From Vairimorpha necatrix (lineage: Eukaryota): DNA of 64,000 bases. Below are positions 5,665 through 55,895 of this stretch, piece by piece. The notes below the pieces were generated by a model. That model did no database searches. It had not been told where the DNA came from and saw only the letters and a program-made list of their open reading frames with translations. How positions within the stretch are numbered: position 1 is the stretch's first letter; each line of letters starts with the position of its first letter. The stretch lies in contig CP142734.1 in NCBI GenBank assembly GCA_036630325.1, forward strand, positions 992,001 through 1,056,000, in the 5' to 3' direction. The position numbers and the translations under genes are program-made.

Positions 5665-5706
5665 ATCTGAAACATTTTATAATAAACATTTCCATTTATT
5701 TGAAAC

Positions 5707-6042
5707 ATGTTTTCTTTTCTTAATTTCCTGGGTCTTGTAAAGACCAGAAGATATGTTTATATTAGAAGTATTTTATTGAGACTACCTGTCTTAATATATT
5801 GCGAAATGTGTAGTGCACTAAGTCGGCCTATATTTATAGTAGACTCGTATGATATGGAGATCTGTACATTGGAGATAAACTTTTATACTAGTAGAGAGTT
5901 TTTAGGATGTTATGAGTGTAGGAATAAGATTGATATAAAGAGGTTTATATGTGAGAAGTGTGATAAGACAAGAGATGGGAGTAAATATTGTAGAGGATGT
6001 GGGAGACAAGAGAAATATTATAAGTGTACTAGAATAACATAA
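5707..6042 (+). CDS. Cys-rich zinc-ribbon protein, divergent paralogue of the two MCDPCC genes
   Basis: Four CxxC pairs (CEMC, CYEC, CEKC, CRGC) with the same spacing as 6333-6647 and 7775-8125. Confidence 0.7.
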   Translation: MFSFLNFLGLVKTRRYVYIRSILLRLPVLIYCEMCSALSRPIFIVDSYDMEICTLEINFYTSREFLGCYECRNKIDIKRFICEKCDKTRDGSKYCRGCGRQEKYYKCTRIT

Positions 6043-6112: not shown

Positions 6113-6304
6113 TTAATTAGAAAGATTAAATTAGAATGATTTAAATTAGTAAAGATTTGAATTAGTAAAGATTTAAATTAGAAAGATTTAAATTAGAAAA
6201 GATTTAAATTAGAAAAGATTTAAATTAGTAAAGATTTAATTAGTAAAGATTTAAATTAGAAATATTTAAATTAGTAAAGATTTAATGTATAATAAAGATT
6301 TAAT
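6113..6304. repeat. minisatellite, ~15-16 bp unit (AATTAG[A/T]AAAGATTTA), about 11 copies
   Basis: Directly visible tandem repeats between two convergent genes. Confidence 0.9.
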
Positions 6305-6332: not shown

Positions 6333-6647
6333 TCATGGTGTACCACAGATCATACAGTAGTCCCCTTCAAAAGGTCGAGACACATGACATTCACTACACT
6401 CTTTCTGAATCCTACCTATCTTATTCTTACACCCTTGACAGGCCACATAAGGGTACCCCCTTATACAAGGAATAAGAGGTATAAAACACACCCGGAAAAT
6501 GTACTCATTTTTCCTGTACACAGGTCTGGTGACCTGTGAGCAGTACGGGCAGAATATTTTATCAGGGAGAATAGTATAACCAAAAGGCCTCTGTACGAAT
6601 CTACTCTTAGATTTGTAGTCTACAAATAAGCAACAAGGATCACACAT
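6333..6647 (-). CDS. microsporidian-type zinc-ribbon protein (zinc_ribbon_15-like)
   Basis: MCDPCC start; CPYC...FRVCFIPLIPC...CQGC...CSEC...YCMICG. Confidence 0.8.
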   Translation of the reverse strand: MCDPCCLFVDYKSKSRFVQRPFGYTILPDKIFCPYCSQVTRPVYRKNEYIFRVCFIPLIPCIRGYPYVACQGCKNKIGRIQKECSECHVSRPFEGDYCMICGTP

Positions 6648-7278
6648 GTGTAAAAATGATATTTTGTGTTATTTATAGAGTACTCCTTAAAATTAATCAA
6701 GGTGATATATCAAATTTAATTAAATTTGAGGCGTATATGTACTGATTTTATAAAGAAAAAGTTCAAATACATATTTGTAAGATTTCTATATGTGCGCCTT
6801 TCATTTGAATAAATATTTTGGAATTTACAGAAATATGCCTTTCTTTGATTCTATACTAGAAGTAATATTTCATTTAAGATGTGACCAGACTCCTTCTATT
6901 AAAATATAAGGCAGTAGGTTCTTAAGTTTTAAATGAATCATGTAGGACTTACACCTTTTTTACACATCTTGTAACAGTAGTAATATCGTACTATCAAGTA
7001 TTTAAGATTCTAAGTCCTTGGTTTAGCTTTAAATAGTGTATACTAAACTAGTACAGTTTCTATAGTACGACATGTTTATTACTATGATATTAAATATTTT
7101 CACTTCCTTTAGTATTATGCAATTAGACACTAATAGCTGAAGTACATGAAATAATTATACTTAGATGCCTAAGTAATTTAAACTTCCGATTTTGTCCTCC
7201 TTTGGAATTTAAACATGTACCAATTAATATTCTAGTTGATCAATTACTGTAATCTTGTATGTTCTTCCAATAGCCAAC

Positions 7279-7774: not shown

Positions 7775-8125
7775 TTATTTTATATTTAGACTCCTCGCTT
7801 CTCCTCCTACTTTAGTCCCGCAGTTGGGACAATATTCCCCGTCAAAGGGTCTTGACACATGACATGCCCTACAGGGCTCCCCTCTGATCATGGGGATTTT
7901 AATGTAGCAATTATCACATGCTAAATATGCCTCACTACTCCAGCATGTACACAGGGGAATGAAGCAGAGTTGGAATTTGTAGTCGTCCTTCTTGTATTTG
8001 GCCTTAGTGACCATTGAGCAGTGGGGACAGAGGATCTTGTCTGGGAGATCAGGGAAGCCCGTAGGCTGAGAGATAGATTTAGTAGAGGGAGACCAGCCCA
8101 CGATGAGACAGCAGGGATCGCACAT
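7775..8125 (-). CDS. microsporidian-type zinc-ribbon protein (zinc_ribbon_15-like)
   Basis: MCDPCC start after ccccctggt; clear paralogue of 6333-6647 (LPDKI.CP.CS.VT, CFIPL, CHVSRPF.G.YC). Confidence 0.85.
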   Translation of the reverse strand: MCDPCCLIVGWSPSTKSISQPTGFPDLPDKILCPHCSMVTKAKYKKDDYKFQLCFIPLCTCWSSEAYLACDNCYIKIPMIRGEPCRACHVSRPFDGEYCPNCGTKVGGEARSLNIK

Positions 8126-8322
8126 ACCAGGGGGGACTGGGAAGTATTTAACATTTTAAAGGGGGAACAGTGCAATAAAAGGGGAAATTAAATTAAAATA
8201 GATTTGTATTATATTATATTTGATATATTAAATTTGTTTATTTATACTTATATATTATATCTTATATTACATATTATATATTACATATCTCATATATTAT
8301 ATCTCATATCTTCATCATATTA

Positions 8323-10884
8323 CTACTTATATGTACTGATTAGATATGTTATCTCTTTATTTTGTGCTCCTACATACGCTCCCTCTTTATATCTCACCAT
8401 ACAGTTCACTGGCCCAGTCTTAAATGACCCCACACAGAAGACACTGTCCTCACAGTAGTCCCAGTATCTCAGGGTACCATTTTTAGAGCCAGTGACGAAT
8501 GAGTCCGAGAGGGCGACCCCGCACTTTATCCACGAGGAGTGGGCATTAGGGACAGTCTTGACTATTTCCCCTTCTCTCCATCTCTTTAGGGAGCAGTCCC
8601 TACTGAGACTAAGGAGATCTCCTTTATATTTTATGAGACTATGTACGACATCAAAATGTGGGGGATTTAACAAATAAGCACTACTAACATTAGTACAAGT
8701 ATTAGTATTATTAGTACTACTTGTATTACCATAAATATTACTACTCTTTACATAACTCTGATTACATTGATTATTATTATTACTACTATAATTCTGTTTA
8801 CATTGATTATTATTTGTAGTGTCTATCATCTTGATGGTGTGATCCCTACTACATGTATATATTTTATTATTCTGCTCTTCTATACAGAATATTGTCCCAC
8901 TGTGTATCTTCTCACTCTTAATACTCATATTCCTTATATCTAATACACTCAGACTCCCATCTTCATGTCCAGTGTAAATTAAGTGGCCTCTCTTCATTAT
9001 ACAACTTATCTCATTCCTGTAAGCGTACAGGGGCATGCCTTTAGTCCTGAAATCCACTGTCTTGAGGATCATCCTCGTGGAGTACAAAATGGACTCGTCA
9101 CTGCAGAGGCACTTGATCCCCGCGTCTGAGCACAGGGTGGAGATCTCCCCTGAGGGACTCCGGACTCTGAGGAGATTATCATAGGAGGAGAAGATAAGAT
9201 GATCATTGTAAATTATCATAGAGTGGGGAATATACCCGAGGATCTTGTCTTTTACAACTGTGTCCATGAGGACTCTCTCTTTCCTGGGGGTCCAAAGGGA
9301 AGATTTCTTCTTTGGGGGACTTATATCAAAAGTGACGTGTTTTATTCTTTTCCATGATAATTTATTTTCTATTGTATTTATATCTGTATTTATATCTTTG
9401 TTTGTATTTATTTTATTATAGTCTGTGTTTTTGTCTGTATTTATTTTATTTTCGTCTGTATAAATATAAATCTTATTTTCGTCATTCACCTTATCCCCAT
9501 TTGTCGTATCTCCATCCCCATTCACCTTATCCCCATTCATCTTATCTCCGTCCCCATTCATCTTGTCCATATTTATCTTATCTCCGTCCCTTTTTATCTT
9601 GTCTTGATTTTTTTGGAGTCTCTCATTCTCATTTATTAAGTTCTGTACAAATGGGTGCTTAATTATCATCTGCGCTATATCTTCACTTTTTCCTTCTTCT
9701 TTCTTCCTCTCTATCTCATTCTTCATTCTTCTATTCTCTTTTATTAATTCTTCTACATCTTCACTCTTAATCTTCTTCATTCTCTCTCTTAATATCTGAT
9801 TCTCAGTACTAAGTCTCTGTATCTCTTTCTTTAATTTAATTATTTCATATTTACTTGTATCTACTTCTATATTCTTCTTAATATTCATTTCTATACTAGA
9901 AGCTCTACTAGCATATTTTAATGTATTATTAGTCTCATTTATATCTTTAGATATTGAACTTATACAAGCTATCATTAAGATATGTGTATTTAGACAAGAT
10001 TGTAATATACGAGTAAGTTTACTGTCTCTATAAGGAATATGAGATCTTTTTAAATATAAACTTGAGATGACATTACCAAGGGCTAAGAGACCAGAATTAA
10101 TAGAAATTGATTCTTTGGCTCTTACACCTGTACAAAGAGTCCTTTTAAGTCTCTCTGAACCCGCCAAATCTACGAATGATATTTTACTATACGAAATCAT
10201 ATTAGTAACGACATTTGGTGAGTTCTTATTATTAGTAACGACGATCTTACTATTAGAGATCTCATTTGATGAGTTCTTATTAAAGTTAAAATTCGTTAAT
10301 GTAAAAATGGCATGAGATCTTGATGATTGAGAATTCATATTTGTGGATTTTGTTGTTCTTTCTTGACATCCTTGTCTTAAAAGATTTGTAACTTCTTCTA
10401 AATTATAAACTTCTTTCTCAGTGACTCCTGCTATTATAACATCCCCTTTTGATTCTCTAAGAGACAGAGGAATCTTATGAGAAGAAAGTAAATCAATGAC
10501 TTCTTCATTATAAATTTCTATAAATGAACAAGATATTTTACAATCTTTATTAAATAAATATTCCAAAGATCTAGGAACAATCCCTTTACTACATGAATCT
10601 ATTAAGTCTAGATTGTTTAAAGTGTCATCTTCTATACCCATGGTGTATGTCTTACCAGATCCAGTTTGTCCATATGCTAATATTGTACAATTTTCACCTT
10701 TAAGAAATTTCTCAAGTAAAGGCACTACACTCCCTTCAAATATCTGCTTCTGAGTAGTAGTAATGTGGACTTTATTGAAGAAATACTTTTTAGTACCAAC
10801 TTGGAGAGAATTAGAATTTACTTCTAGAGATGATTCGAGACTTGGTTTTATGCGGATTTCAACATTTATATTTTTATTCTGCAT
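8323..10884 (-). CDS. kinesin with N-terminal motor, coiled coil and C-terminal WD40 repeats (kinesin-4/KIF21-like architecture)
   Basis: P-loop GQTGSGKT, switch I NSQSSRSH, switch II DLAGSE, HIPYRDSKLTRILQ. WD40-like C-terminus (TGHEDGSLSVLD, TCSRDHTIK, TGSKNGTLRYWD). Confidence 0.95.
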   Translation of the reverse strand: MQNKNINVEIRIKPSLESSLEVNSNSLQVGTKKYFFNKVHITTTQKQIFEGSVVPLLEKFLKGENCTILAYGQTGSGKTYTMGIEDDTLNNLDLIDSCSKGIVPRSLEYLFNKDCKISCSFIEIYNEEVIDLLSSHKIPLSLRESKGDVIIAGVTEKEVYNLEEVTNLLRQGCQERTTKSTNMNSQSSRSHAIFTLTNFNFNKNSSNEISNSKIVVTNNKNSPNVVTNMISYSKISFVDLAGSERLKRTLCTGVRAKESISINSGLLALGNVISSLYLKRSHIPYRDSKLTRILQSCLNTHILMIACISSISKDINETNNTLKYASRASSIEMNIKKNIEVDTSKYEIIKLKKEIQRLSTENQILRERMKKIKSEDVEELIKENRRMKNEIERKKEEGKSEDIAQMIIKHPFVQNLINENERLQKNQDKIKRDGDKINMDKMNGDGDKMNGDKVNGDGDTTNGDKVNDENKIYIYTDENKINTDKNTDYNKINTNKDINTDINTIENKLSWKRIKHVTFDISPPKKKSSLWTPRKERVLMDTVVKDKILGYIPHSMIIYNDHLIFSSYDNLLRVRSPSGEISTLCSDAGIKCLCSDESILYSTRMILKTVDFRTKGMPLYAYRNEISCIMKRGHLIYTGHEDGSLSVLDIRNMSIKSEKIHSGTIFCIEEQNNKIYTCSRDHTIKMIDTTNNNQCKQNYSSNNNNQCNQSYVKSSNIYGNTSSTNNTNTCTNVSSAYLLNPPHFDVVHSLIKYKGDLLSLSRDCSLKRWREGEIVKTVPNAHSSWIKCGVALSDSFVTGSKNGTLRYWDYCEDSVFCVGSFKTGPVNCMVRYKEGAYVGAQNKEITYLISTYK

Positions 10885-13587: not shown

Positions 13588-15873
13588 TGTTACCAGAAGG
13601 AGAGCTGGTTATTGAAGAAGGCTTTTTATTAGAAGAAGAACTATATTTATTTGGCATGTTTATTCTATTTAAGATTTCTTAAATAGTTTTAGTTTCGGAT
13701 CTGAAACAATCATGTTTCAGATCATTATGATTTGTTTCATCTTTCAGTTTTAGTCTGATTATTGGTGTGTGCAACACAGCCGGTAACACTCTCCCCTCCT
13801 TAGAACAAGGCTTCACTTCCAGGGAAGATGTTATATCCTCCAATATATCGTAGAACTTTTCATTTATAAGACTTAAGGTTTCAAAGGTTCTTCTAGATGT
13901 TCTTTTTGTATTAAGAAATGATCCTCTGTACTTTTTATTGAAAGGTCTCTTCATGTTCCTATATTTAGTTGAGACTAAGATTTCCATTTTATGCATATTA
14001 GCAAGAAGAAATCTTGGTTTTACCTCTTCGTATCTCAAAGAATGTTTACTGAGCATGTTTCTGCTCTGATTATCCGATATTTCATTTCTAGATAATGTAT
14101 AGTAAGACATTATGAACTTTTTACGCGGCTTCTTAAATATATTAAATATTATTCTTTTAAGTTTTATTCTAATGTTATTCAACTCACAGTGCAGAACCAT
14201 AAATAGTAACTTCCAGGTCAGTATTGGTCTCATACCTTCATCTATTTTAGACATTATTTCGGTAAGCACGATCTGCACGATCGCTACTTCCTCGCTCACC
14301 GCGCTTTTATTCACAAATAAAAATGTTTGTTTCTTCACTTCGTGCTCGTAAATTTCTTTTCTCAGAAGAGTTAAATAGTATCGTTTTCTCGGGTCGAGTT
14401 GGTGGTTCAATTTCGCTACACTTAAGTATGTAGAACATTCTTTAATCACGGGGGATTGACATACTTCTTCAATCATGGTTTCTTTTGCTTTTGTTTCTTC
14501 ATTGCATAGGCGCACACCATCGTCTATTTTCGTTACGATCGAACTTAATGAGTCCTTGGTGCTCGTATAGTCGTCTCTTCCCGCGCTTTTATTTACTTGC
14601 GCATTGTTTGGGTTGTTTCCATCGTGTCCGAGTATAATCTTTTGTAAGCAAACAATATGCCTGCTGGTCGATGTACTCATCTCGGTTAATCTCAGATTTC
14701 GATACTGAAGTGAGGTCTGAGCTGTTTCTGTACTTGCTCTTTTTTTAATCCGCATATCTTCTTGTTTTGACACTCTTTTGTCTATACTCTGTGGATAGTT
14801 TCGAATGCATTGGCCTCCTTTAGCCCTTCTTAGTTTCTTTCTATTAACTAAGGTTTTATCAACAAATGAGTTAAATTCACCTGATCCCAGGCGCATTCTT
14901 ACTACATCGCCATTAACGGTTCCTTCGACTGTAGTATCGTTCGTGTCTCTTGACACCGGATCTGCCTCGATTAAAAACACCTCTATTTCCTCGTGTTTAT
15001 TGCAGTCCTTAAGCAAGTGCTCACCTCCGCACTTATAGCATACTACCTTTCTCAGACTCTCTTTCGTCCGTGTAGTATCTGGCCTCGAAGTCCTTGCTTC
15101 CCTTGGCCTATTCTGTTCAGGTCTCTGCCTTGAACTCTCAATAAATTTATGATTTCTCTCATAAATCTTTAGTACAACGTCCCATGACGTTGCCTCTTCC
15201 ACCTTTTCTTTAAGTGACGGTGGGAAATATCTAGCCAACTCCTCCGTAATTTCAGACACGCTAACTCCTGCTTTCTTGTTAAGCTTCATTAGTTCGTATA
15301 TAAAGTTTTCAATTTTCATATTTACAGGTCCAGAGTATAGTCTCTTATAAAGCATTTTAATGGGATTAATTCCCTCCCGGAATTCTTCTTTCCCATATTT
15401 TGTTAGAAATTTCTGTTTGAATTCCATATATCCTTCCACCTCGTCTTCAATTACAGCCTCATACCATAGAAGAGCTGATTCCCCTAAGTATCTCTTAATG
15501 TAATTGAGCAGTTTTATATCATTCCATTCTCCCTCGAGGTATTTAAATTGATTAATCCAGACCCATGCATTCTCGCCTTGGGTACCGTTGAATTTCACCA
15601 TTGTGTTAGTAGATATCCCTAATTTTTCTAGTAGGTGGCCCAATTCGTTGGATTTCGAATAGTTGTCGCCAGTGTTACCAGAAGGAGAGCTGGTTATTGA
15701 AGAAGGCTTTTTATTAGAAGAAGAACTATATTTATTTGGCATGTTTATTCTATTTAAGATTTCTTAAATAGTTTTAGTTTCGGATCTGAAACAATCATGT
15801 TTCAGATCATTATGATTTGTTTCATCTTTCAGTTTTAGTCTGATTATTGGTGTGTGCAACACAGCCGGTAACA
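13588..15873 (-). mobile_element. non-autonomous LTR retrotransposon (Ty3/gypsy-derived), 2286 bp
   Basis: Identical 201-bp LTRs (13588-13788, 15673-15873) with TGTTACC...GGTAACA termini; 5-bp TSD AGTAT (13583-87, 15874-78); PBS TGGCGACAAC next to the 5' LTR; PPT AAGGAGGGGAGAG next to the 3' LTR. Confidence 0.95.
13679..15742 (-). CDS. Gag with zinc knuckle fused to degenerate pol remnants
   Basis: 687 aa; capsid-like KFNG...WINQF...YLGESALLWY; CYKCGGEHLLKDC knuckle; protease site reads LGSGE (no catalytic Asp); no YxDD or integrase DDE found. Confidence 0.8.
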   Translation of the reverse strand: MPNKYSSSSNKKPSSITSSPSGNTGDNYSKSNELGHLLEKLGISTNTMVKFNGTQGENAWVWINQFKYLEGEWNDIKLLNYIKRYLGESALLWYEAVIEDEVEGYMEFKQKFLTKYGKEEFREGINPIKMLYKRLYSGPVNMKIENFIYELMKLNKKAGVSVSEITEELARYFPPSLKEKVEEATSWDVVLKIYERNHKFIESSRQRPEQNRPREARTSRPDTTRTKESLRKVVCYKCGGEHLLKDCNKHEEIEVFLIEADPVSRDTNDTTVEGTVNGDVVRMRLGSGEFNSFVDKTLVNRKKLRRAKGGQCIRNYPQSIDKRVSKQEDMRIKKRASTETAQTSLQYRNLRLTEMSTSTSRHIVCLQKIILGHDGNNPNNAQVNKSAGRDDYTSTKDSLSSIVTKIDDGVRLCNEETKAKETMIEEVCQSPVIKECSTYLSVAKLNHQLDPRKRYYLTLLRKEIYEHEVKKQTFLFVNKSAVSEEVAIVQIVLTEIMSKIDEGMRPILTWKLLFMVLHCELNNIRIKLKRIIFNIFKKPRKKFIMSYYTLSRNEISDNQSRNMLSKHSLRYEEVKPRFLLANMHKMEILVSTKYRNMKRPFNKKYRGSFLNTKRTSRRTFETLSLINEKFYDILEDITSSLEVKPCSKEGRVLPAVLHTPIIRLKLKDETNHNDLKHDCFRSETKTI

Positions 15874-15905: not shown

Positions 15906-17783
15906 TTAATTGGGTTCTTTTAAATTCTCTAAAGCTGTCTGTATTTTATCCACTAAAAACCCATTAGTACTCTCAATCTTCATTAATATCTCCTGAAAAT
16001 CATATTTATTAATAATCCGTATTCTTTCTTCATACCCGTCATCTTTCCACGATAAATTAATCAAAATCCACACTAGTGACAGGTTAAAATCATGAATATT
16101 AAATAAATCTTTAAGTCTTAATAAAACATCATTGTCTTGTAACAACAAGTCTCTGAATTTTATATCATTTGCTGATATATTGACCATACAGTATAAAATG
16201 TGGATAAGTATCTTCTTATTGGTAGTGTTTATTAAGTGGATGAAGATTTTTTTGATTAAGTAATTGCTTATGTGGATCTTGTCACAGACTAGATTTCTAA
16301 TTAAATTGAATAAAACTTCCATCATTTGATTATCATAATATGAATTAGCACCATTACAAACTAATGTGTTATTATCTATATTATTATTATTATTAGATGT
16401 AGTAACATTATTTGATGTGGTATTATCTATATTGATATCTATATTATTAGATATATTGTTATTTGATGTAGTATTACTTAGTAAACTATTATTAGATGAC
16501 AGATTTAATGCATTATTATCTATACTGTTATTTGTGCTTTCTTCTATGTCACTTATAAATCCATTAGTATAATTTTCTGTAATATTTGTTTCATTGTGAT
16601 TAAAAATATTCTCAAACCATTCATCTCCATATTCTAAAAAGTTCATTTTACTCTCTACTGTATTATCATACAAATAATTCTTATATAACCTTAATATCTC
16701 ATACGGATACTCTCTACATCTCTCTACCTTCTCAAACCCTTTTAATTCAACAAAAATCTTCCTATAATTCCCAAACTCTAGTAATAAATTAGTAAAAATA
16801 TTCAATATAATTTTCTTATACGACCTTGTTATCCCTTTATAAATAATTTTATAATCAATATTACTATTTTCTTCTTTTAAAAATTTTATATTATCTTCTT
16901 CAAGTAAATTTAATAATATTTCTATAATAGGAAACTTTATAATTTCACTTCTTAACATAAATACTGATCTAGTTACATTTAATAAAACTAATAACGAATT
17001 TATATCTATAAAATCATTACTAAAATTTTTAAAAATTTTTGATAAATTTATATATTTCCTGTTTTCTTCATTATTAAGTGTCAAAATGTAATCTAAAAAC
17101 ATGTTCTGGTTTAATAAATCTAATTGTTTGTATTTTAAAAATTTTAAACCTTTATCATTATTTTTTAAAAAAAATGCTAAAAAAATTATAAAATTTTTTT
17201 CGTAAATACAATTTACATTAAAAATTTGTAAATCTGGATTTTTTAAAAGTAAAATGTTAAAAATAATAAATTTGTCTTTGTAACTTACAAAATCTAGAGA
17301 TTTTGTAAGTTCGTATGTATTAAAATCTGAATATTTGTAATTTAAAACATTTTTGATTGCTATAACACATGGACAATTTTGTTGAGAATTAGTTAATATT
17401 GAGGAATAAATATCAAATTTTTCTTGTAATTTGTATTTTGTACATATTTTTTTGTATATTTTGATGATTTTTATGTCCAAATATGTGTATGGATATTTTA
17501 TATTAGAAATATAAAGTTCTAACCTATTTAAAAAATTTTTAGGGATTTTTAGAATGTAGTAAATGTCAGTAATGACAGATATATCGTGAGGAGATAAGTT
17601 TATGAAGTTTGATTTGTTGTTTTTTGATAGTATGTCTTGTAATTCTAGATCTAGATTTGATTTTGGAGAATATGGAAGATTGTTTCTGAAATTAATTAAG
17701 TCTGGACATTTTACAGTGTTGATGTTTATATGGCCGATGTAGATGTCTACATTTGATATATGAGAATTTGTAAAATTGAACAT
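15906..17783 (-). CDS. armadillo-repeat protein, ARMC8/Vid28(Gid5)-like (putative)
   Basis: 625 aa. C-terminus ILYCMVNISA...SLVWILINLSWKDDGYEERI...LVDKIQTALENL resembles the ARMC8 C-terminal repeats as recalled. Asn-rich insert. Confidence 0.65.
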   Translation of the reverse strand: MFNFTNSHISNVDIYIGHININTVKCPDLINFRNNLPYSPKSNLDLELQDILSKNNKSNFINLSPHDISVITDIYYILKIPKNFLNRLELYISNIKYPYTYLDIKIIKIYKKICTKYKLQEKFDIYSSILTNSQQNCPCVIAIKNVLNYKYSDFNTYELTKSLDFVSYKDKFIIFNILLLKNPDLQIFNVNCIYEKNFIIFLAFFLKNNDKGLKFLKYKQLDLLNQNMFLDYILTLNNEENRKYINLSKIFKNFSNDFIDINSLLVLLNVTRSVFMLRSEIIKFPIIEILLNLLEEDNIKFLKEENSNIDYKIIYKGITRSYKKIILNIFTNLLLEFGNYRKIFVELKGFEKVERCREYPYEILRLYKNYLYDNTVESKMNFLEYGDEWFENIFNHNETNITENYTNGFISDIEESTNNSIDNNALNLSSNNSLLSNTTSNNNISNNIDINIDNTTSNNVTTSNNNNNIDNNTLVCNGANSYYDNQMMEVLFNLIRNLVCDKIHISNYLIKKIFIHLINTTNKKILIHILYCMVNISANDIKFRDLLLQDNDVLLRLKDLFNIHDFNLSLVWILINLSWKDDGYEERIRIINKYDFQEILMKIESTNGFLVDKIQTALENLKEPN

Positions 17784-44204: not shown

Positions 44205-47200
44205 CTAGCGTATGCTTTCCCGTTTTGAAAACGGCATCGAAATGTTTAGTTTTATAATATGTATTTCCCCTTTTAATTTTTTTAAGTTTCCATTTTGGGA
44301 TGATTGAATTTGACAGGATGAAGACATCTTTTTCGAAAATACTTTTAAGTAACATATAAGGAGTAAAGTTTTTAAAAACACTTATGAGTCATATTGAAAT
44401 AATTTTGGAGACTTCTAAGCTCAATTTTTGACACTTATATTCAAAATCTTTATTTGGCAATTATTTTTAAAATTTTTCTAGAAGGGTTAAATAAATTCTA
44501 AAAAACGATTCTGACGATATTTTAGAACTGAGTTTTACATAAAAAGAATAATATGAATTAAAATGCATTAATATATAATATACGCACTCACAATTATCAA
44601 ATTAAAACGTTAAAATTAAATTTGATATTATATTAACGTAAAAGGCTCAAAATGTACCGTTTAGAAATTTCAAAACCACAAAAAAGAAGGGTTAAAAATT
44701 AAATAAAATTCTTTTATATATATGACTAGCGTATGCTTTCCCGTTTTGAAAACGGGATCGAAATGTTTAGTTTTTTAATATGTCTTTGATCCTTGAATTT
44801 TTTTGAGTTTACATTTTGGGATGATTGAATTTGATAGGATGAAATCATCTTTTTCAAAAATACTTTTTAGTAACATATTAGGAGTAAAGTTGAGTTAAAA
44901 ACACTTTTGAGTCATATTGAAATAATTTCGGGAACTTCTAAGCTCAATTTTTGACACTTATCATCAAAATCATTATTGGTTGAATGTTTTTACAATTTTT
45001 CGTGGAAGGGTCAAATAAATTCTAAAAAACGATTCTGACGATATTTTGGAACTGAGTTTAACAAAAATAATAATCAAAATTAAAAAGTATTAACTAATAA
45101 CATACACACTTAGAATAATCAAATTAAAGCAATAAATCTATATTTGATATCACAATAACACAATAAGCTATAATAAGAAGTTTAGATTTTACAAAATCAC
45201 AAAAAAGAGGGGTAAAAAATTAAATAAAATTCTTTTATATATATGATGATGACTAGCGTATGCTTTCCCGTTTTAAAAACGGGATCTAAATGTTTAGTTT
45301 TTAAATATGTATTCCTTCTTTTTATTTTTTTAAGTTTCCACTAGCGTATGCTTTCCCGTTTTGAAAACGGGATTAATGTGTGTGCGCATTGCATTTTTCT
45401 TTTGATTTACCATTTTGGGTTGGAATAAGAAAAGGAGAGAATATAATTCTTAACAACAGTAAATATTAGATTATTGGCAGACTTAAATACAGAATTCGAT
45501 TCAAATTATTATATAAAATTCAATGCTATAAATTCTAAATGTTTTTTAGTCAAAATTTGACACTTATCATTCGAAATCCGAAATGGTTAATTGTTTTATG
45601 AATTTTTGTGGAAGGGTTAAATAAATTCTAAAAAACGATTCTGACGATATTTTGGAACTGAGTTTTACAAAAAATTTATAAAAAACAAAAAAGTATTAAC
45701 ATATAGTATACGCATATACAATTGTCAAATTGAAACATTAAATCTAAAAACACTATTTTTATAACTTAATAAGATCAAAATACATAGTTATAAAATTTTA
45801 AAACCACAAAAAAGAGGGGTAAAAAATTAAATAAAATTCTTTTATATATATGATTTTGGATTGAATGAATTTAAAAAGGAGAAAAAATGATTTTTAAAAA
45901 TACTGTTTAGTATCATATAAGAAGTAATGTTGTTGTAAAACATTTTATAATCTCAATGAGATAATTTTGGAACTTCTAAGCTCATTTTTTGACACTTATA
46001 TTCAAAATCTTTATTTGTCAGATGTTTTTACAATTTTCCGTGGAAGGGTTAAATAAATTCTAAAAAACGATTCTGACGATATTTTGGAACTGAGTTTTAC
46101 AAAAATAATAAATAGAATAAAAATGCATTAATATACAGTATACGCACATATGATAGCCAAAATCCTCCTTTGAGCTTATATTTGATATCATAATAACACA
46201 ATAAGCTATAATAAGAAGTTTAGAAATTTCAAAGTCACAAAAAAGAGGGGTAAAAAATTAAATAAAATTCTTTTATATATATGACTAGCGTATGCTTTCC
46301 CGTTTTGAAAACGGGATTGATATATTGTTCATAGCATTTATTTCTACTTTATTTTTTGAGTTTCCATTTTGGGAAAAATAAATTTGAAAAGGAAAAAACA
46401 TGAATTTACAAAATACTTTTTAGTAACATATAAGGAGTAAAGTTGAGCTAAAAACATTTAATAATTATAATGAGATAATTTTGGAAACTTCTAAGCTCAA
46501 TTTTTGACACTTATATTTTACTTATTTTTTGGTTAATGTTTTTGTGAATTTTTTCTAGAAGGGTTAAATAAATTCTAAAAAACGATTCTGACGATATTTT
46601 GGAACTAAGTTTTACGAAAATAATAATCAAAATAAAAATGCATTTACACATAATATACACACTTACAATATTTATATCGAAACATTAGATGTAAATTTGA
46701 TATTTTTAATACACAATAAGCTGTAATAAGAAGTTTAAAGTTTACAAATTCATAAAAAAGAGGGGTAAAAAATTAAATAAAATTCTTTTATATATATGAT
46801 GACTAGCGTATGCTTTCCCGTTTTTGAAAACGGGATCTAAATGTTTAGTTTGCTAATAATATGTCTTATATCCTTAAATTTTGTTGAGTCTCCATTTTAT
46901 GAATGAATTTGAAAAGGAGAAAACATGATTTTAAAAAATACTTTTTAGTAACATATAAGGAGTAAAGTTGAGCTAAAAACATTTAATAATTATAATGAGA
47001 TAATTTTGGGAACTTCTAAGCTCAAGTTTTGATACTTATATTCAACTTTTTCTTTGGTTAATATTTTTGTGAATTTTTTCTAGAAGGGTTAAATAAATTC
47101 TAAAAAACGATTCTGACGATATTTTGGAACTGAGTTTTCTAAAAATAAGAATTAAAATGAAAATGCATTAACATACAGTACACGCACTTATGAAAGTCAA

Positions 47201-48900
47201 AATCCTTCAATGAGTTTATATTTGATATTACAATGGCACAATAAGCTATAATAAGAAGTTTAGATTTTACAAAATCACAAAAAAGAGGGGTAAAAAATTA
47301 AATAAAATTCTTTTATATATATGATGACTAGCGTATGCTTTCCCGTTTTGAAAACGGGATCTAAATGTTTAGTTTTTTAATATGTATTTCCCCTTTTGAT
47401 TTTGTTAAGTTTCCATTTTGGGATGAATGAATTTGAAAAGGAGAAAACATGATTTTGAAAAATACTTTTTAGTGACATAAAAGGAGTAAAGTTGAGCTTA
47501 AAACATTTATTAATTATAATGAGATGATTTTGTGAACTTCTAAGCTCATTTTTTGACACTTTTATTCAACATTCTTTTTGGTACATGTTTTTGGGATTTT
47601 TTTCTAGAAGGGTTAAATAAATTCTAAAAAATGATTCTGACAATATTTTGGAACTGAGTTTAACAAAAATAATTATATGAATTAAAATGCATTAATATAT
47701 AATATACGCACTCACAATTATTAAATAAAAACGTTAAAATTAAATTTGATATTATATTAACATAAAAGGCCCAAAACATATCGTTTAGAAATTTCAAAAC
47801 CACAAAAAAGAGGGGTAAAAAATTAAATAAAATTCTTTTATATATATGACTAGCGTATGCTTTCCCGTTTTGAAAACGGGATCTAAATGTTTAGTTTTAT
47901 AATATGTCGCTCCTCGGTGAATTTTGGTATGTTTCCATTTTGGGATGATTGAATTTGACAGGATGAAGACATCTTTTTCAAAAATACTTTTTAGTGACAT
48001 AAAATGATCAAGTTGAGTTCAAAACACTTATGAGTCTCATTGAAATAATTTTGGGAACTTCTAAGCTCAATTTTTGACACTTACATGTAAGATCTTCATT
48101 GGTTATATGTTTTTGCAATTTTTCTAGAAGGGTTAAATAAATTCTAAAAAACGATTCTGGCGATATTTTGGGACCAAGCTTTCCGAAAATAACAATCTAA
48201 ATAAAAATGTATTAACATACAACATACGCATCAACGATAGTCAAAATACTTCATTGAGTTTATATTTGATATTACAATGGCGCAATAAGTTATAATAAGA
48301 AGTTTATATTTTTTAAGACCACAAAAAAGAGGGGGTAAAAAATTAAATAAAATTCTTTTATATATATGATGACTAGCGTATGCTTTCCCGTTTTTGAAAA
48401 CGGGATCTAAATGTTTAGTTTGCTAATATGTCTTATATCCTTAAATTTTGTTGAGTTTCCATTTTTTGGATAACTGAATTTAAAAAGGAGAAAACATGAT
48501 TTTGAAAAAAACTTTTTAATAACATTTAAAGAGTAAAATGAAGTTGAAAACACTTATTAATCTTAATGAAATATGTTTAAAACTCTTACAGCTCAGTTTT
48601 TGACACTTACATTCAATTTCTTCTTTGTATTTTGTTTTTAAAATTTTTCTAGAAGGGTTAAATAAATTCTAAAAAACGATTCTGACGATATTTTGGAACT
48701 GAGTTTTACAAAACAAAGAATTAAAATGGAAATGTATTAACATACAGTACACGCACATATGATAGTCAACATCCTTCCTTGAGTTTATATTTGATATTAT
48801 AATAAGTTAATAAGACCAAAATATACAGTGTGGAAATTTCAAATTCACAAAAAAGAGGGGTAAAAAATTAAATAAAATTCTTTTATATATATGATGATGA
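44205..48900 (-). mobile_element. array of nine ~513-528 bp non-autonomous Helitron-like elements
   Basis: Units: 44205-44725, 44726-45252, 45253-46284 (interrupted), 45341-45853 (nested), 46285-46802, 46803-47327, 47328-47849, 47850-48372, 48373-48900. On the minus strand each starts TC(ATC)nATATATATAAAAG and ends in hairpin TCCCGTTTT-C-AAAACGGGA + 9 nt + CTAG. Flanks are A and T with no TSD. Confidence 0.85.
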
Positions 48901-48941
48901 TTACGGAATTACATATAGCATAAATATGGGAGGTTGGTGCT

Positions 48942-49020
48942 GTATAAACGAAAACCAAGACATAAATACTGCTGAATTCCCTATATATTGTAGTCATTTT
49001 AATATGCAAATATCTTCCAT
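48942..49020 (+). repeat. left copy of 79-bp direct repeat flanking the MULE
   Basis: Matches 50756-50834 at 78/79 positions. Confidence 0.93.
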
Positions 49021-50755
49021 CGGTAACCGTAAATTCGCCTGTAGGCGAATTTACGGTTTTTCGCCAAAAATTAAAATTTGCTCGTTTTTTCGCCAAAAAA
49101 AATACAAAAAAAAATTTATTGGTATTAAGAAAGAAATAAAAGATTTGAAAAGCTTTATTATAATTTTAATTAAAATTTATTGGTTATAAAAAAAGCATTT
49201 ATAATAAAAATAGGTTTATTGAATTAACTTATTCGCATTTGAAATTCACGTGTTGCAGTAAAGCATTCATGTACTCTTCACGAGAATAATGTTTATAATT
49301 TTTAACGATTATTCTAATTTTTTCCTCCGCTTTTTGGGTTTTTTTAGCTTCAAATAATCCTTTTTTATAACGTTTTAGATTATATATATCCATTTCTTCA
49401 CAATCGAGTATTCTTGAAATAAAAAGAGCGATATTTGGATTTCTTGTCTCCATCCTCTTGTTTATGGTTCTATTCCAGCTTTCTGCATTGTTAGAAGTCC
49501 GAGGAATTTCATTTTTTACCCTATCAAATACATTCCAAAAATTTATATAGGCGACAGCTCTCCCACCATTATCTTCTCTAGTTACATGGGAAACTAAATA
49601 ATTATTTTCAAAGTATAACTGAAAGTTAGCTGTGGTTGTAATTGAATTATCTTTTATAAATTTCTTAATATCTTCATAAAAAACCAGAACATCTCGTATT
49701 GGCACAAAAGCTAATCTAAGAATCTTTTTGAATACTAGATTATAGTTAGAATCGTTTTTAAACTTTTCTATGTCCCCCATTGCCCCGACTCTTTTATAGG
49801 CTGCCTGCCCAAGATGAAACAAGCATCCATTACAGTTTGCTCCAGGGAAAGATATTCGTAATGCATTGACCAATCCTCTCTCAAAATCAGTCACAAAGTT
49901 CTTAACATTCATAGTAACTAATTCCTTGCATTTATCGAAGGCTCTAGAATATGACCTTTCACTTTTTCCCTTGAGTAAAATATAAATGTATGGAAAACTT
50001 TTGCCAAATATATGTCCATGAAAGACGACAATTTGGTAAAATCCTTGAGGAGAAGATTTAAACGTTCCATCGACAACGAACGTATCTATTTTTTCAATCA
50101 TACTTTTTTTGAATTCTGAAAAAAATATTATAAATCTATCATTATCCTGCATACCACTATCAAATCTAAGAAAACGATTTTTTTTAGAATCTACTTGCAG
50201 GACTTCGGGTATATCCATAATGCAACCAGTTATAAATCCGAGTCTTGAATTTCTTGTTCGTTTGATTGTATCTCTTAAATATTCTATGGAAGGCATTTTA
50301 GTAATATCTAAGCTGGTTGACAATGCTGGGAGTTGTTTTTTTATTATTTCTAATGAGTTTTCATTACTTGTAGCAACTTGTTCTTTTATTTTTTTAATAG
50401 TTCTTTTAAACATGCATTTCTCAGGTACTGGTTCATGTGAATGAATAACTTTTTTAACGATTTCGTTTTGTTCATTCATTATAATGGCACCTCTACAAGA
50501 CCTATTACTGCACCTCCATCGCCTAGTGCCGTCCTTATTGTAGTCTAAAGTGTATATCTGATCTTCATAGATAAGATTTTGCCCTCCACGTTGACCTTTA
50601 AAAATTTCAAAGTTGTCGTTCAATTTTTTTAAGGGTAGATTTTCGGCGAAAAAAAAGGAAAAATTTTATGGGCAAAATTTTTGGCGAAAAACAACCATTT
50701 TTGAACTTTTGGCGAAAAACCGTAAATTCGCCTGTAGGCGAATTTACGGGTACCC
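49021..50755 (-). mobile_element. Mutator-like (MULE) DNA transposon, 1735 bp
   Basis: Terminal inverted repeats of ~50 bp or more (CGGTAACCGTAAATTCGCCT.. / ..AGGCGAATTTACGGGTACCC), each with an internal palindrome and subterminal TTTTCGCC repeats, enclosing a transposase ORF. Confidence 0.92.
49229..50623 (-). CDS. FLYWCH-MULE DDE transposase
   Basis: WRCSNRSC...HSH zinc finger; VVDGTFK, VTDFERGL, GCLFHLGQ, RTSNNAESWN motifs; the frame opens at TTG, not ATG. Confidence 0.9.
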   Translation of the reverse strand: MNDNFEIFKGQRGGQNLIYEDQIYTLDYNKDGTRRWRCSNRSCRGAIIMNEQNEIVKKVIHSHEPVPEKCMFKRTIKKIKEQVATSNENSLEIIKKQLPALSTSLDITKMPSIEYLRDTIKRTRNSRLGFITGCIMDIPEVLQVDSKKNRFLRFDSGMQDNDRFIIFFSEFKKSMIEKIDTFVVDGTFKSSPQGFYQIVVFHGHIFGKSFPYIYILLKGKSERSYSRAFDKCKELVTMNVKNFVTDFERGLVNALRISFPGANCNGCLFHLGQAAYKRVGAMGDIEKFKNDSNYNLVFKKILRLAFVPIRDVLVFYEDIKKFIKDNSITTTANFQLYFENNYLVSHVTREDNGGRAVAYINFWNVFDRVKNEIPRTSNNAESWNRTINKRMETRNPNIALFISRILDCEEMDIYNLKRYKKGLFEAKKTQKAEEKIRIIVKNYKHYSREEYMNALLQHVNFKCE

Positions 50756-50834
50756 GTATAAACGAAAACCAAGACATAAATACTGCTGAATTCCCTTTAT
50801 ATTGTAGTCATTTTAATATGCAAATATCTTCCAT
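50756..50834 (+). repeat. right copy of 79-bp direct repeat flanking the MULE
   Basis: GTATAAACGAAAACC...ATATCTTCCAT, one A/T mismatch versus 48942-49020. Confidence 0.93.
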
Positions 50835-51395
50835 ACCTGAAAACTAAAACATTTCTATTAAATTTTCAATTGGGATTGATAATTGTATATTTAATAAAAA
50901 AGCGATTGTTAAGATATATAAAAAATTTAGCACCAGTCCATCATCAAAACTAAAACTACAATTTTTAATCGTATATTGAAGTATTTTATCACTGCTTTGA
51001 TGAACTACTTTTTAAAATTTTTAAAGTTAAATATAAGTAACTCATGGATAATGTACTTCATACTTTTATTTCTAATTTATATCAAGAGATCAAAATGGCA
51101 TAAATAATCCTTCAAATATTATACATTTTATGATGTTCAAACTTGTTTATACGTATGTGTAGTTAAGTTTTTACTTCTTATGGTGGTAACTAGATATATT
51201 CCCTGCCCAAAAAAATCACCACATTATACGAAACAATTTTTTCCACTTTGCGATTATATACGCATAAAAAAGAACTAGTAAATTTGAAAACAAGCAATTT
51301 AATGTTTTTATTACCTTGGTGCGAGCTAGAATAAATAGTAATATTGTAAAAAGACATTTCAAGTATTTATTATTGTCATTAAGTCATAATTTTTG

Positions 51396-52228
51396 GGGTG
51401 AAAGATACCACAGTACCCCCATTTGAGGGTGTTTACTTTATTTTTTCGAACCCCAAAAACGAAGTGCAAAATAAAGGAGGAGCAGGAAGGAGACAAAAAT
51501 TACTAAGCACTTACGACATTAAAAATAACAAATAAATATATATTTATGTACAGAATTATATTTTAATACAAGTTTTAATAATCATTTTAAGTATTGTGTC
51601 TTTTTTGTCCTTCTTATATTTTCAATTTTTTTTTAATTTTTGGTTTATTATAAAAGTAGATTTTCTTCAAAAATCTACTTTTATGATAAAACAAAAATTA
51701 AAATTATAATATTATTTATTTAAGAAAATTTAAATAAATATTCAACGATCTATAAAGATTGTTAAATCAAAAAATTTAATTTAAAATTTGAGAAGTTACT
51801 AAGAAAATATACTTTTATGAATATATTCTTTTTTAAATTGAATTTCGTACACAAGAGTATATTTATTTAATGTTTTTTATATTTAAAGATGCAAGTAATT
51901 TGAGTGCACCTGATTGCTTCTCCTTTATTTTGCACTTTGTTTTTGGGGTTCGAAAAAATAAAGTGAACACCCTTAGAGGGGGCGTGTTGGTCCGCAATTC
52001 TAAAAAATCAGAAGGGTAAAAAATGCTTGTTAATTTATATAAGTGTAAAAACTTGTATTAAAATATGATTCTGTACATAAATATATATTTATTTGTTATT
52101 TTTAATGTCGAAGTGCTTAGTAATTTTTGTCTCCTTCTTGCTCCTCCTTTTTTTTGCACTTAGTTTTTGGGGTTCGAAAAAATAAAGTAAACACCCTCAA
52201 ATGGGGGGTACTGTGGTACCCCACCTCC
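51396..52228. mobile_element. non-coding long-TIR element (MITE/foldback-like)
   Basis: ~170-180 bp inverted repeats (about 51396-51575 and 52048-52228); TAATTTTTG duplicated on both sides (51387-95, 52229-37); no ORF. Confidence 0.85.
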
Positions 52229-53666: not shown

Positions 53667-55895
53667 ATGGATGTCGTTAAATTTGCTTTTACTATTTTAT
53701 TTATAAAATCGGGTCAATATGTTTCTAATCAGATAAATTTGGTACTAATAAAAAAAATAGAAAGCGGTGATTATACTACAATTGATTATGATAAACGATA
53801 TTTGAGAATTTTAATGGATTTTGATATCAGACAAAATAATATTAATGTTTATATTGTTGTAGAGATCAAAGGTTTTCAAAGAAGACAGGAAACTAAAAAT
53901 GTAAAGATTAATTGCACTAACAAATCTATTTTAACTGTAGTTAAAGAATTTAAACACATTATTTTATTGGAACATAGAAATTATTGGCTGATTATAACGT
54001 TTTGATTTATAATCCGTTATTTTTCCAAGTTCGTCCTATTTTTAAGAACTTAATTGAACATATAAAAAACGAAAATATCAAACAAAAAAAATTAAGACTC
54101 AAGGATGAACTATTTTATGAATACATCATGGAAAATGATGTCCTTTGGTACAAAGTATTTACAAATTTAAAATTTAAGACTAGCATTGTCCAGGGTAGAT
54201 TATGTTTTCCACAATCTCCAATTTCTTATATTAAAAGGAGCAATTCCCGCTACATATGTATTTGTATAAATATAGACAAGGTTCATTATTTCTTTGAATT
54301 AAATATCAAAGAACTTGGTTCTGAAAATCTTATTCCACATACAATTATGATAAGAGAACATATTAATGAAATTGACCACCAAATATGTATTCACCTTAAA
54401 GAATTGTATAAATTTATATATGTTGATAAAATCGTTAAGCGTAATATATCTTATTTTTCGGTTTGTACGTTAAATAAAATTGAATTTTATCACAATATAT
54501 TCAAAATTAAAATGGATAATGACGAAATACGTTTTACACAAAATTACAAGGAATATATATATTCTTTACAACATGAAGCCATTTTTACAAATTCGACATC
54601 TTTGGAATTTCAAGAGTTTTTTAGAAAAACCTATTATATAAAGACTTTAGGTGAATGTCATAACGAAGTGGAATTGCTTTTTAGATTATTAGAAACAGGT
54701 GGTCGTGCAGAATTCTTCTTAAAAAAAATCTTAAATAAAAGAGGAAGTGCAATTTATTTGATTTTACTTCAAATATTGTTGTCTGATAATTTGTATAAAG
54801 AATTTAATCTAAGTAAAATTTTAAGAAACGAAGAATTTGATGAAACATCGAAAAATCTGCTTATAGAAAAAATAATAACAAATTTATGCAATTGTAGTTT
54901 TTTAGCGAGTACTTTCCTGATAAAAATCTGTTTATTATTGGAAGTTGAACGTTTTATAAATGAAAATGATGTTAGTGATAAACCAATATTATTAATTTTG
55001 AGCAATATCGCCGCTCTTATCAAGAAAAAAGCAGGGTTTATACCATGTGATAATCAATATAATGTCACTAAAAAGATCGATTTAATTGAAATATTCCACG
55101 TCGCTGTAAAATTTCATCTTAAAGATATTCAGGCATACATGAACAATATATGGAAGCAAATTTTTTCGATAACATCATTATATACAGGATATGAGCAAAA
55201 TTTGTGTATACTTGAATATGTACATTTTTATATTGAAAAAGATAGAGTTTTTGATTTTTTTTGCTTAAATAATATTTTAGTTGAAAATAATAATGAAATA
55301 TTAAGAAAAAAATTATCAGAAAACACAAGAAACCAACGTATTAACGAAGCACTATATCGTTATAGAAAAGAATTGAAAATATTGTTTATAGTTTTTATGA
55401 AAAAAGATTATCTACGGCACTATGTAAAATTAAGCATGATGCTTTAAATAAAAAAATTAATTATTTATATGATAAAAATAGAACTAAAATGTTTGAAAAA
55501 CGATTACGTCAAAACGGAGTAAATGTAATTGAAAAGATCTTTAGTAATAAATGTTTGACAGAAGATGTATCCAATGTATCGGCAGGAATTAATGCAGAAT
55601 TGCTTTATGAATGTAAAAAAGACGAACTTGAAATTTTCTCTCGAGATTTAAACAAGTTAATTAATTTAAATATAAGAAATACTATAAAAAATGATTTTTA
55701 AATATCTCTTGAATCTCTTTTGGACAATGAAATTAGTAACAAAAAAATTTTTAAAGAATTTGCGGAAAAAAAATTAAAAAAATTCGAATGTTGCTGTGTG
55801 AAAATGAATTATCTGAAATTCTGAATGATTACAATATAGGAGTGAAATTTCACAGAAATTTAACCAAGATATTGGAAAATTATGATAAAAAATAA
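53667..55895 (+). pseudogene. multiply frameshifted secreted-family gene, probable paralogue of 37154-39038
   Basis: ccccatATG start. Consecutive ORFs 53667-54005, 53984-55447 and 55489-55701 lie in different frames, followed by a further coding-like tail. Shared patterns with the 37-kb gene (W..YN...Y.PL; LLFRLLETGG vs LFYRLLHRRG). Confidence 0.6.

Follow-up and report, generated by a model that had tools for sequence, protein, structure and literature searches.

A 4.7 kb cluster of short repeated elements is present in Vairimorpha necatrix at positions 44205-48900 of the stretch analysed here (64,000 nucleotides of contig CP142734.1, hereafter the window). The cluster consists of nine non-coding units of ~520 bp, all on the minus strand, which are probably nine members of a single family of canonical Helitrons, short, non-coding and non-autonomous, that were brought together by several events. 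One arrival into the family is directly visible: the copy designated U4n lies inside another unit, U3.

Unit termini and a nested insertion

Read on the minus strand, the units share the layout 5′ TC(A)n-ATATATATAAAAG ... TCCCGTTTT-C-AAAACGGGA-AAGCATACG-CTAG 3′. All nine start with TCA and end with CTAG, in agreement with the canonical Helitron termini (5′ TC and 3′ CTRR). The 3′ motif GGGAAAGCATACGCTAG and the 5′ motif TCATATATATAAAAGAATTTTATTTAA each occur nine times in the window, always within the array, for chance expectations of 0.02 and 0.00, respectively. The limits of the units were set from the exact positions of these motifs and from an nhmmer profile search (Table 1). The sequence of the 5′ end, TCATATATA, contains further A/T steps (here and below, a slash marks the point of insertion or joining).

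Each of the nine units carries a 19-nt hairpin separated from the 3′ end by 13 nt, i.e., the 9 nt AAGCATACG followed by CTAG. The hairpin pattern gave 16 strand-matches at nine sites in the window (0.03 expected), and the predicted fold, with a stem of 8 bp and a loop of 3 nt, has an energy of -9.8 kcal/mol (z = -4.68; none of 200 shuffled sequences reached it). The variants were tallied as six perfect copies of TCCCGTTTTCAAAACGGGA, one with a mismatch in the stem, one with a base change in the loop and two with a longer loop. On the minus strand, the array as a whole is preceded by A (complement of the T at position 48901) and followed by T (complement of the A at position 44204), and no target-site duplication was found at these outer flanks.

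Canonical Helitrons are described as having a 5′ TC, a 3′ CTRR, a palindrome of 16-20 nt about 11 bp from the 3′ end and an insertion between A and T that does not duplicate the target (PMC4067079). The units thus resemble the canonical Helitron1 type by their TC and CTAG ends, by a 19-nt palindrome located 13 nt before the 3′ end, by their A/T insertion without target-site duplication and by their lack of coding capacity. They differ from it by a variable (TCA)1-3 at the 5′ end and by a third, internal block of 56 nt that is conserved like the termini. A preliminary description of the sequence had already pointed to units with a TC start and a hairpin 9 nt before CTAG, to a location of the whole array between A and T without duplication, and to the Helitron hallmarks that these features represent. 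The unit structure was recovered in all nine copies, the outer flanks are as described, and every sequence-level mark of Helitrons that could be tested in the window is present.

The same description took the cluster for a stack of nine units joined CTAG/TC. Eight units are indeed arranged head to tail, with seven such junctions. The ninth, U4n, is located outside of this row, and the cluster is therefore not a plain stack of nine, because U4n sits inside U3. The CTAG end of U4n abuts a T (complement of position 45340) and its TC end follows an A (complement of position 45854). Once U4n is taken out of the alignment, the two flanking pieces join into a complete U3 that aligns with the other units at every column. 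An independent indication comes from nhmmer, in which the match to U3 is broken in two at profile position 436. At the pre-insertion site reconstructed in this way, U4n was inserted between A and T with zero bases duplicated and zero bases lost. U4n is a Helitron-style insertion seen directly, within another member of its own family.

No coding sequence was recognized in the array. The longest stop-to-stop frame inside it encodes 80 aa, frames of 105-106 aa being found only where the listed span extends into the right flank, and Pfam gave no match for two frames within the array and two others extending from the 5′ edge of the array to the right flank. When a 74-aa frame running across a junction was used as a query against a protein collection, no candidate had three words in common with it, a result that is uninformative on copies located elsewhere. 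Similarly, a collection restricted to bacterial and archaeal contigs contained no match to the 22 invariant nt of the 3′ end or to a segment of 25 nt from the internal block, a result that has no bearing on the dispersal of the family. No tRNA was detected in the array and the Rfam scan of the array gave nothing above threshold, the best match being snoR09 (29.5 bits for a gathering score of 50, E = 0.29). The period of the array is longer than the maximum of 500 accepted by Tandem Repeats Finder, which for this reason missed it.

Table 1. Coordinates in the window of the Helitron units, their landmarks and neighbouring features
Feature	Position	Strand	Length	(TCA)n	Remarks
U1	44205-44725	-	521 bp	1	3′-most element; hairpin with one mismatch
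U2	44726-45252	-	527 bp	3	
U3, 3′ part	45253-45340	-	88 bp		hairpin and CTAG end; nhmmer profile positions 436-523
U4n	45341-45853	-	513 bp	1	most divergent copy; nested in U3
U3, 5′ part	45854-46284	-	431 bp	1	nhmmer profile positions 4-436
U5	46285-46802	-	518 bp	2	
U6	46803-47327	-	525 bp	2	hairpin loop longer by one A
U7	47328-47849	-	522 bp	1	
U8	47850-48372	-	523 bp	2	largest departure in conserved blocks (6/140 positions)
U9	48373-48900	-	528 bp	3	5′-most element; host A precedes on minus strand
Hairpin TCCCGTTTTCAAAACGGGA, example in U7	47341-47359	-			pattern match and fold
Hairpins in other units	44218-44236, 44739-44757, 45266-45284, 45354-45372, 46298-46316, 46816-46835, 47863-47881, 48386-48405	-			
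Conserved internal block, example in U6	47091-47134	-	44 nt		pattern found in 8/9 units at <=3 mismatches; U8 copy more changed
Mutator-like element (MULE)-type element	48942-50835				
FLYWCH + MULE transposase gene	49229-50623	-			
MULE-type terminal inverted repeats	49022-49098, 50678-50754		77 nt		83% complementary
Direct repeat outside the inverted repeats	~48942-49021, ~50756-50835		~80 bp		79/80 identical
Foldback structure, similar to a miniature inverted-repeat transposable element (MITE)	51416-52207		~790 bp		
Further partial arm copy of the foldback structure	51915-51982				
Ty3/gypsy polyprotein open reading frame (ORF)	57234-60752	-	1172 aa		
Zn_ribbon_15 ORF	5704-6039	+			
Zn_ribbon_15 ORF	6336-6668	-			
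Zn_ribbon_15 ORF	7778-8155	-			
Tandem repeat, 12 copies	6115-6303		16 nt per copy		
Kinesin motor ORF	8323-10884	-	853 aa		
ORF without Pfam match	13679-15742	-	687 aa		
ORF without Pfam match	15906-17783	-	625 aa		
ORF without Pfam match	42726-43859	+	377 aa		ends 345 bp from the array
ORF without Pfam match	53984-55447	+	487 aa		

Conserved blocks and mosaic variation

The units share 64-87% identity in pairwise comparisons, U4n being an outlier at 64-68%, and their differences are distributed very unevenly. Three blocks, of 50 nt at the 5′ end, 56 nt in the interior and 34 nt at the 3′ end, contain 17 variable columns out of 140, versus 288 out of 403 in the rest of the alignment. On average, pairs of units mismatch at 1.4%, 4.8% and 1.3% of positions in the 5′, internal and 3′ blocks, respectively, whereas the three variable stretches reach 29%, 26% and 24% (a range of 20-29% is also given for them). 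Individual units depart from the consensus of the conserved blocks at 1-6 of the 140 positions. U4n departs from it at a single position and shares only 45-57% identity with the other units over alignment columns 301-515, which cover most of its 3′ half. Because this immigrant copy carries the three blocks nearly unchanged, the alignment indicates that they are conserved in the mobile lineage itself and are not a property of the array locus. Such a pattern would be expected of cis signals for transposition, unlike neutral decay at the locus.

The internal block (found in units across positions 44489-48703) is conserved like the termini, also in the nested U4n. We know of no requirement of canonical Helitrons for internal sequence. 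A possible origin of this block as a copy of the 5′ end was rejected: 13 of 14 positions match, but 114 of 2000 shuffled sequences score equally.

The relationships between units do not reflect their order. Sequence distance does not rise with distance in the array (Mantel r = 0.10, one-sided p = 0.31), and neighbouring units share a mean identity of 82.4%, versus 79.5-85.3% for units at other spacings. A similarity following the array order, as expected for old tandem duplication, had been named beforehand as a result that would speak against serial insertion, and it is not observed. Moreover, trees of the three variable stretches conflict with one another, with support (ultrafast bootstrap/Shimodaira-Hasegawa-like approximate likelihood ratio test). 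For instance, U1 groups with U7 in the 5′ stretch (91/90) and U5 with U6 in the middle stretch (92/91), whereas in the 3′ stretch U6 groups with U9 (92/99) and U1, U2 and U8 come together (99/98). The changes of partner are located at or near the conserved blocks. In a site-compatibility test, 39% of the pairs formed by neighbouring informative sites were incompatible, versus 56% when sites are shuffled, and none of 5000 shuffles gave a value as low. On the strength of this test, we consider that the units are recombinant mosaics.

The number of TCA trinucleotides at the 5′ end varies from one to three (Table 1), with a total of 15 over the eight tandem units. At least one TCA is present in every unit, and each of the nine keeps an intact (TA)4 after the TCA run. 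This variation had been attributed in the preliminary description to A/T targeting at or within the 5′ end of resident copies, an explanation whose arithmetic fails. If a newcomer were inserted inside a resident (TCA)n, it would gain TCA trinucleotides at the expense of the resident, and some residents would be left without any; no such unit is seen. Trinucleotide slippage, or alternative cutting at successive A/TC steps, would fit the counts better.

Origin of the array

Tandem arrays of Helitrons have been described in bat and silkworm (PMC4067079), and head-to-tail arrays in Myotis lucifugus, Bombyx mori, Arabidopsis, on the Y of Drosophila pseudoobscura and in Xenopus (PMC5876387; PMC4067079; bioRxiv 10.1101/2021.06.02.446622; PMC12001565; PMC11934779). 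Circles of the Helraiser element are reported to have a precise TC/CTAG junction, the enzyme is reported to cut at the A/TC boundary, and head-to-tail junctions are reported from genomes (PMC5876387). The array of V. necatrix resembles the published ones, as they are described, in that complete elements follow one another, the 3′ end of one meeting the 5′ end of the next through the junction known from the Helraiser circle. The published arrays are explained by bypass of termination, which produces like units, whereas here the units share 64-87% identity, are mosaic and show no effect of neighbourhood; this comparison is by description only. There is also a precedent, in bat and maize, for distantly related Helitrons located directly side by side (PMC4067079). 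From the account given there, the present case differs by involving a single family and a run of eight units with exact junctions.

An array formed by run-on replication would be expected to contain like units that later decayed uniformly, and the identity values, the uneven divergence and the mosaic units depart from this expectation. A single recent run-on had been judged inadequate in the preliminary description, and this judgement holds: such an event is to be regarded as excluded because of the divergence between units, which reaches 20-29% in the variable parts versus ~1.4% at the termini. Neutral decay of units laid down by one old run-on is likewise excluded by the pattern of conserved blocks. 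Several separate arrivals of already diverged and recombinant family members fit best. The heterogeneous mosaic units make the usual run-on origin unlikely and insertion next to kin a reasonable possibility.

Such arrivals could have proceeded as follows. A transposase of the Rep/helicase type, encoded elsewhere, would nick the A/TC boundary of a donor copy and unwind one strand up to the hairpin and the CTAG end. The ends would then be joined into a circle with a CTAG-TC junction, one strand of which would integrate between A and T without duplication of the target. The seven junctions of the array are identical to the known junction of Helitron circles. The conserved 5′ and 3′ blocks would act as cis signals for the transposase. 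The most likely route to an array would be integration at or beside a resident copy. As the enzyme already binds the A/TC nick site of such a copy and cuts it, this site would be a natural target. By analogy with the cut at an ordinary A/T target, to which a nick at a resident A/TC would be chemically the same, joining a newcomer at this site would give CTAG/TC. Some of the junctions could stem from multimeric circles or from a bypassed 3′ end. Repeated insertion beside resident copies is therefore plausible, as proposed at the outset for the A/TC of a resident, but it is one of several possible routes.

A more specific and rather speculative proposal is that these elements home to members of their own family. 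A resident copy whose conserved 5′ block is occupied by the transposase would offer its A/TC as the target of an incoming circle, the array would grow at its 5′ edge by single elements and donate mosaics, and the internal block would be a third cis element required for the process.

Several observations weigh against a build-up from separate arrivals. No Helitron_like_N or PIF1-type helicase domain was detected among the 50 frames of the window that were scanned, and no copy of the family was found in the remaining ~59 kb of the window, either by nhmmer or with the two terminal motifs. The approximately unbiased (AU) tests of the conflict between trees are weak (p = 0.03-0.26) and concern clades chosen post hoc from these trees; the mosaic structure is argued from site compatibility and not from these clade tests. 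The limits of the conserved blocks were also set post hoc from the alignment, which inflates the Fisher p-value attached to them; the 15-20-fold contrast in divergence between the blocks and the rest is independent of this p-value. U1-U2 and U7-U8 are reciprocal best matches (87% and 84%), a hint of copying as a pair. There is no age gradient along the array, as measured by departures from the consensus in the conserved blocks (rho = -0.31, p = 0.46), and the window shows no order of arrival. Finally, a build-up of this kind does not account for the excess of TCA trinucleotides.

A duplication of the pair U1-U2/U7-U8 was examined as such and rejected. Compared in steps of 50 nt, the two pairs share 70-100% identity, the sole long tract with at least 90% identity lies in U1/U7 and the shared termini, and the resemblance does not exceed the sharing of segment subtypes.

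The best of the competing explanations, although an unlikely one, is an old local array, in which a single run-on or tandem duplication was followed by divergence in place, unequal crossing-over and gene conversion, the blocks being kept by selection at the locus. It would account for the location of all nine copies at one place of the window, for the exact unit junction found at all seven joints, for a mosaic structure of the type that conversion between units produces, and for the presence of neighbours (U5/U6 and U1/U2) among the best-supported pairs; run-on is, in addition, the textbook origin of tandem Helitron arrays in the accounts cited (PMC4067079, PMC12001565). However, it requires selection in place or a host function to maintain the 15-20-fold contrast, of which there is no sign, the snoR09 match being below its gathering score. 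It is also at odds with the same conserved blocks in the immigrant U4n and with a sequence distance that does not rise with distance in the array.

Somewhat less likely again is the arrival of the whole 4.7 kb block, or of large parts of it, as a composite Helitron. The block taken overall has a 5′ TC, a 3′ CTAG and A and T flanks without duplication, transposition using the ends of two different copies has been documented in bat (PMC4224331), new Helitrons are described as arising from combinations of others in silkworm (PMC3789558), and the resemblance of U1-U2 to U7-U8 hints at paired movement or copying. This resemblance is nevertheless not above the sharing of subtypes among single units, the window contains no second array for comparison, and the origin of a heterogeneous array would merely be shifted to another locus.

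A host tandem array (small RNA genes, a satellite or a regulatory array) ending in TC and CTAG by chance could invoke the conserved internal 56-nt block, which canonical Helitrons are not known to need, and the promoter-like conserved motif described in a tandem and dispersed non-coding repeat of Nosema ceranae (PMC2685015), but it is hardly credible in view of the clean insertion of U4n with defined ends, of the presence of all four Helitron sequence hallmarks and of the Rfam and tRNA scans, which gave no match above threshold.

Genomic surroundings and related elements

The window has ~25% G+C and contains intron-poor eukaryotic genes recognized by Pfam, which encode a kinesin, Rad21, a patatin, an ABC transporter, an M1 aminopeptidase and a HECT ligase. 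Among named proteins, the M1 aminopeptidase is closest to those of Vairimorpha bombi (66% identity) and Nosema granulosis (56%), which places the window in a microsporidian of the Nosema/Vairimorpha clade. The array is located in a transposon-rich stretch with MULE/FLYWCH transposase and Ty3/gypsy polyprotein genes. One end of the array lies ~40 bp from a MULE-type element that encodes a FLYWCH and MULE transposase between 77-nt terminal inverted repeats. A direct repeat of ~80 bp is present just outside these inverted repeats and is far longer than the usual target-site duplication of MULEs (8-10 bp). An Rfam match to mir-7563 in the end of this element is below threshold (28.9 bits versus 80). 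Further on, a foldback or MITE-like structure has arms of 97 nt (97% complementary) and 109 nt (83%) around a centre of 379 nt, with a further partial copy of an arm, and an intact-looking Ty3/gypsy ORF encodes a polyprotein with protease, reverse transcriptase, RNase H and integrase.

Elsewhere in the window, three small paralogous Zn_ribbon_15 ORFs surround a tandem repeat of 16 nt, and a large ORF combines an N-terminal kinesin motor domain with weak WD40/beta-propeller matches at residues ~620-810. Four ORFs, including the one closest to the array, had no Pfam match at E <= 0.001 (Table 1).

Two other types of elements were considered for the units. Helentrons, or Helitron2, and their non-autonomous HINE/DINE-1 elements are described as inserting between T and T, with subterminal inverted repeats, a 3′ palindrome and a varying number of terminal bases (PMC4067079). 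The units share with them the rolling-circle type, the 3′ palindrome and a variation of terminal bases from copy to copy, but their target is A/T and none of the 14 inverted-repeat pairs of U6 links the two ends, so that they were not assigned to this group. Membership of the Replitrons, for which short direct terminal repeats are given as a mark (PMC10288648), was rejected as well: the ends TCATATA... and ...ACGCTAG have no common direct repeat.

In the related microsporidia, three families of Helitron helicase ORFs have been reported in N. ceranae and one in Nosema bombycis (PMC4202319), and Helitrons are listed among the commonest coding elements of N. ceranae (Cornman et al., PMC2685015). 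The same study described in N. ceranae an unclassified non-coding repeat of ~700 bp, often in tandem, with at least two subtypes and a conserved promoter-like motif, that matched 250 contigs (Cornman et al. 2009; PMC2685015). As described, this repeat resembles the units of V. necatrix in belonging to a related host clade and in being non-coding, often tandem and divided into subtypes with a conserved internal motif. It differs from them by a core of ~700 bp with undefined boundaries, versus ~520 bp here, the comparison being again by description only. The N. ceranae repeat may be a relative of this Helitron family. In the microsporidian literature, searched with the exception of subscription journals and supplements, we found beyond Cornman et al. 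(2009) no description of the family and no Helitron label for the N. ceranae repeat, and the automated pipelines reported in PMC12558613 give only an overall 'Helitron load' for microsporidian genomes.

Helitron arrays and the mechanism of Helitrons were already known, and this mechanism is left unchanged by the array. What is new is a cleanly bounded family with a nested insertion. With the array, exact ends and an orientation become available for one non-coding repeat family of the compact genome of a microsporidian, together with an insertion that took place naturally. The array also offers a natural test case for the origin of tandem Helitron arrays, one that the usual run-on account does not fit. 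It may also account for the repeat left unclassified in N. ceranae in 2009 (PMC2685015). If the family does home to its own kind and if the tandem and dispersed repeat of N. ceranae belongs to it, these elements would represent a main repeat class of the clade.

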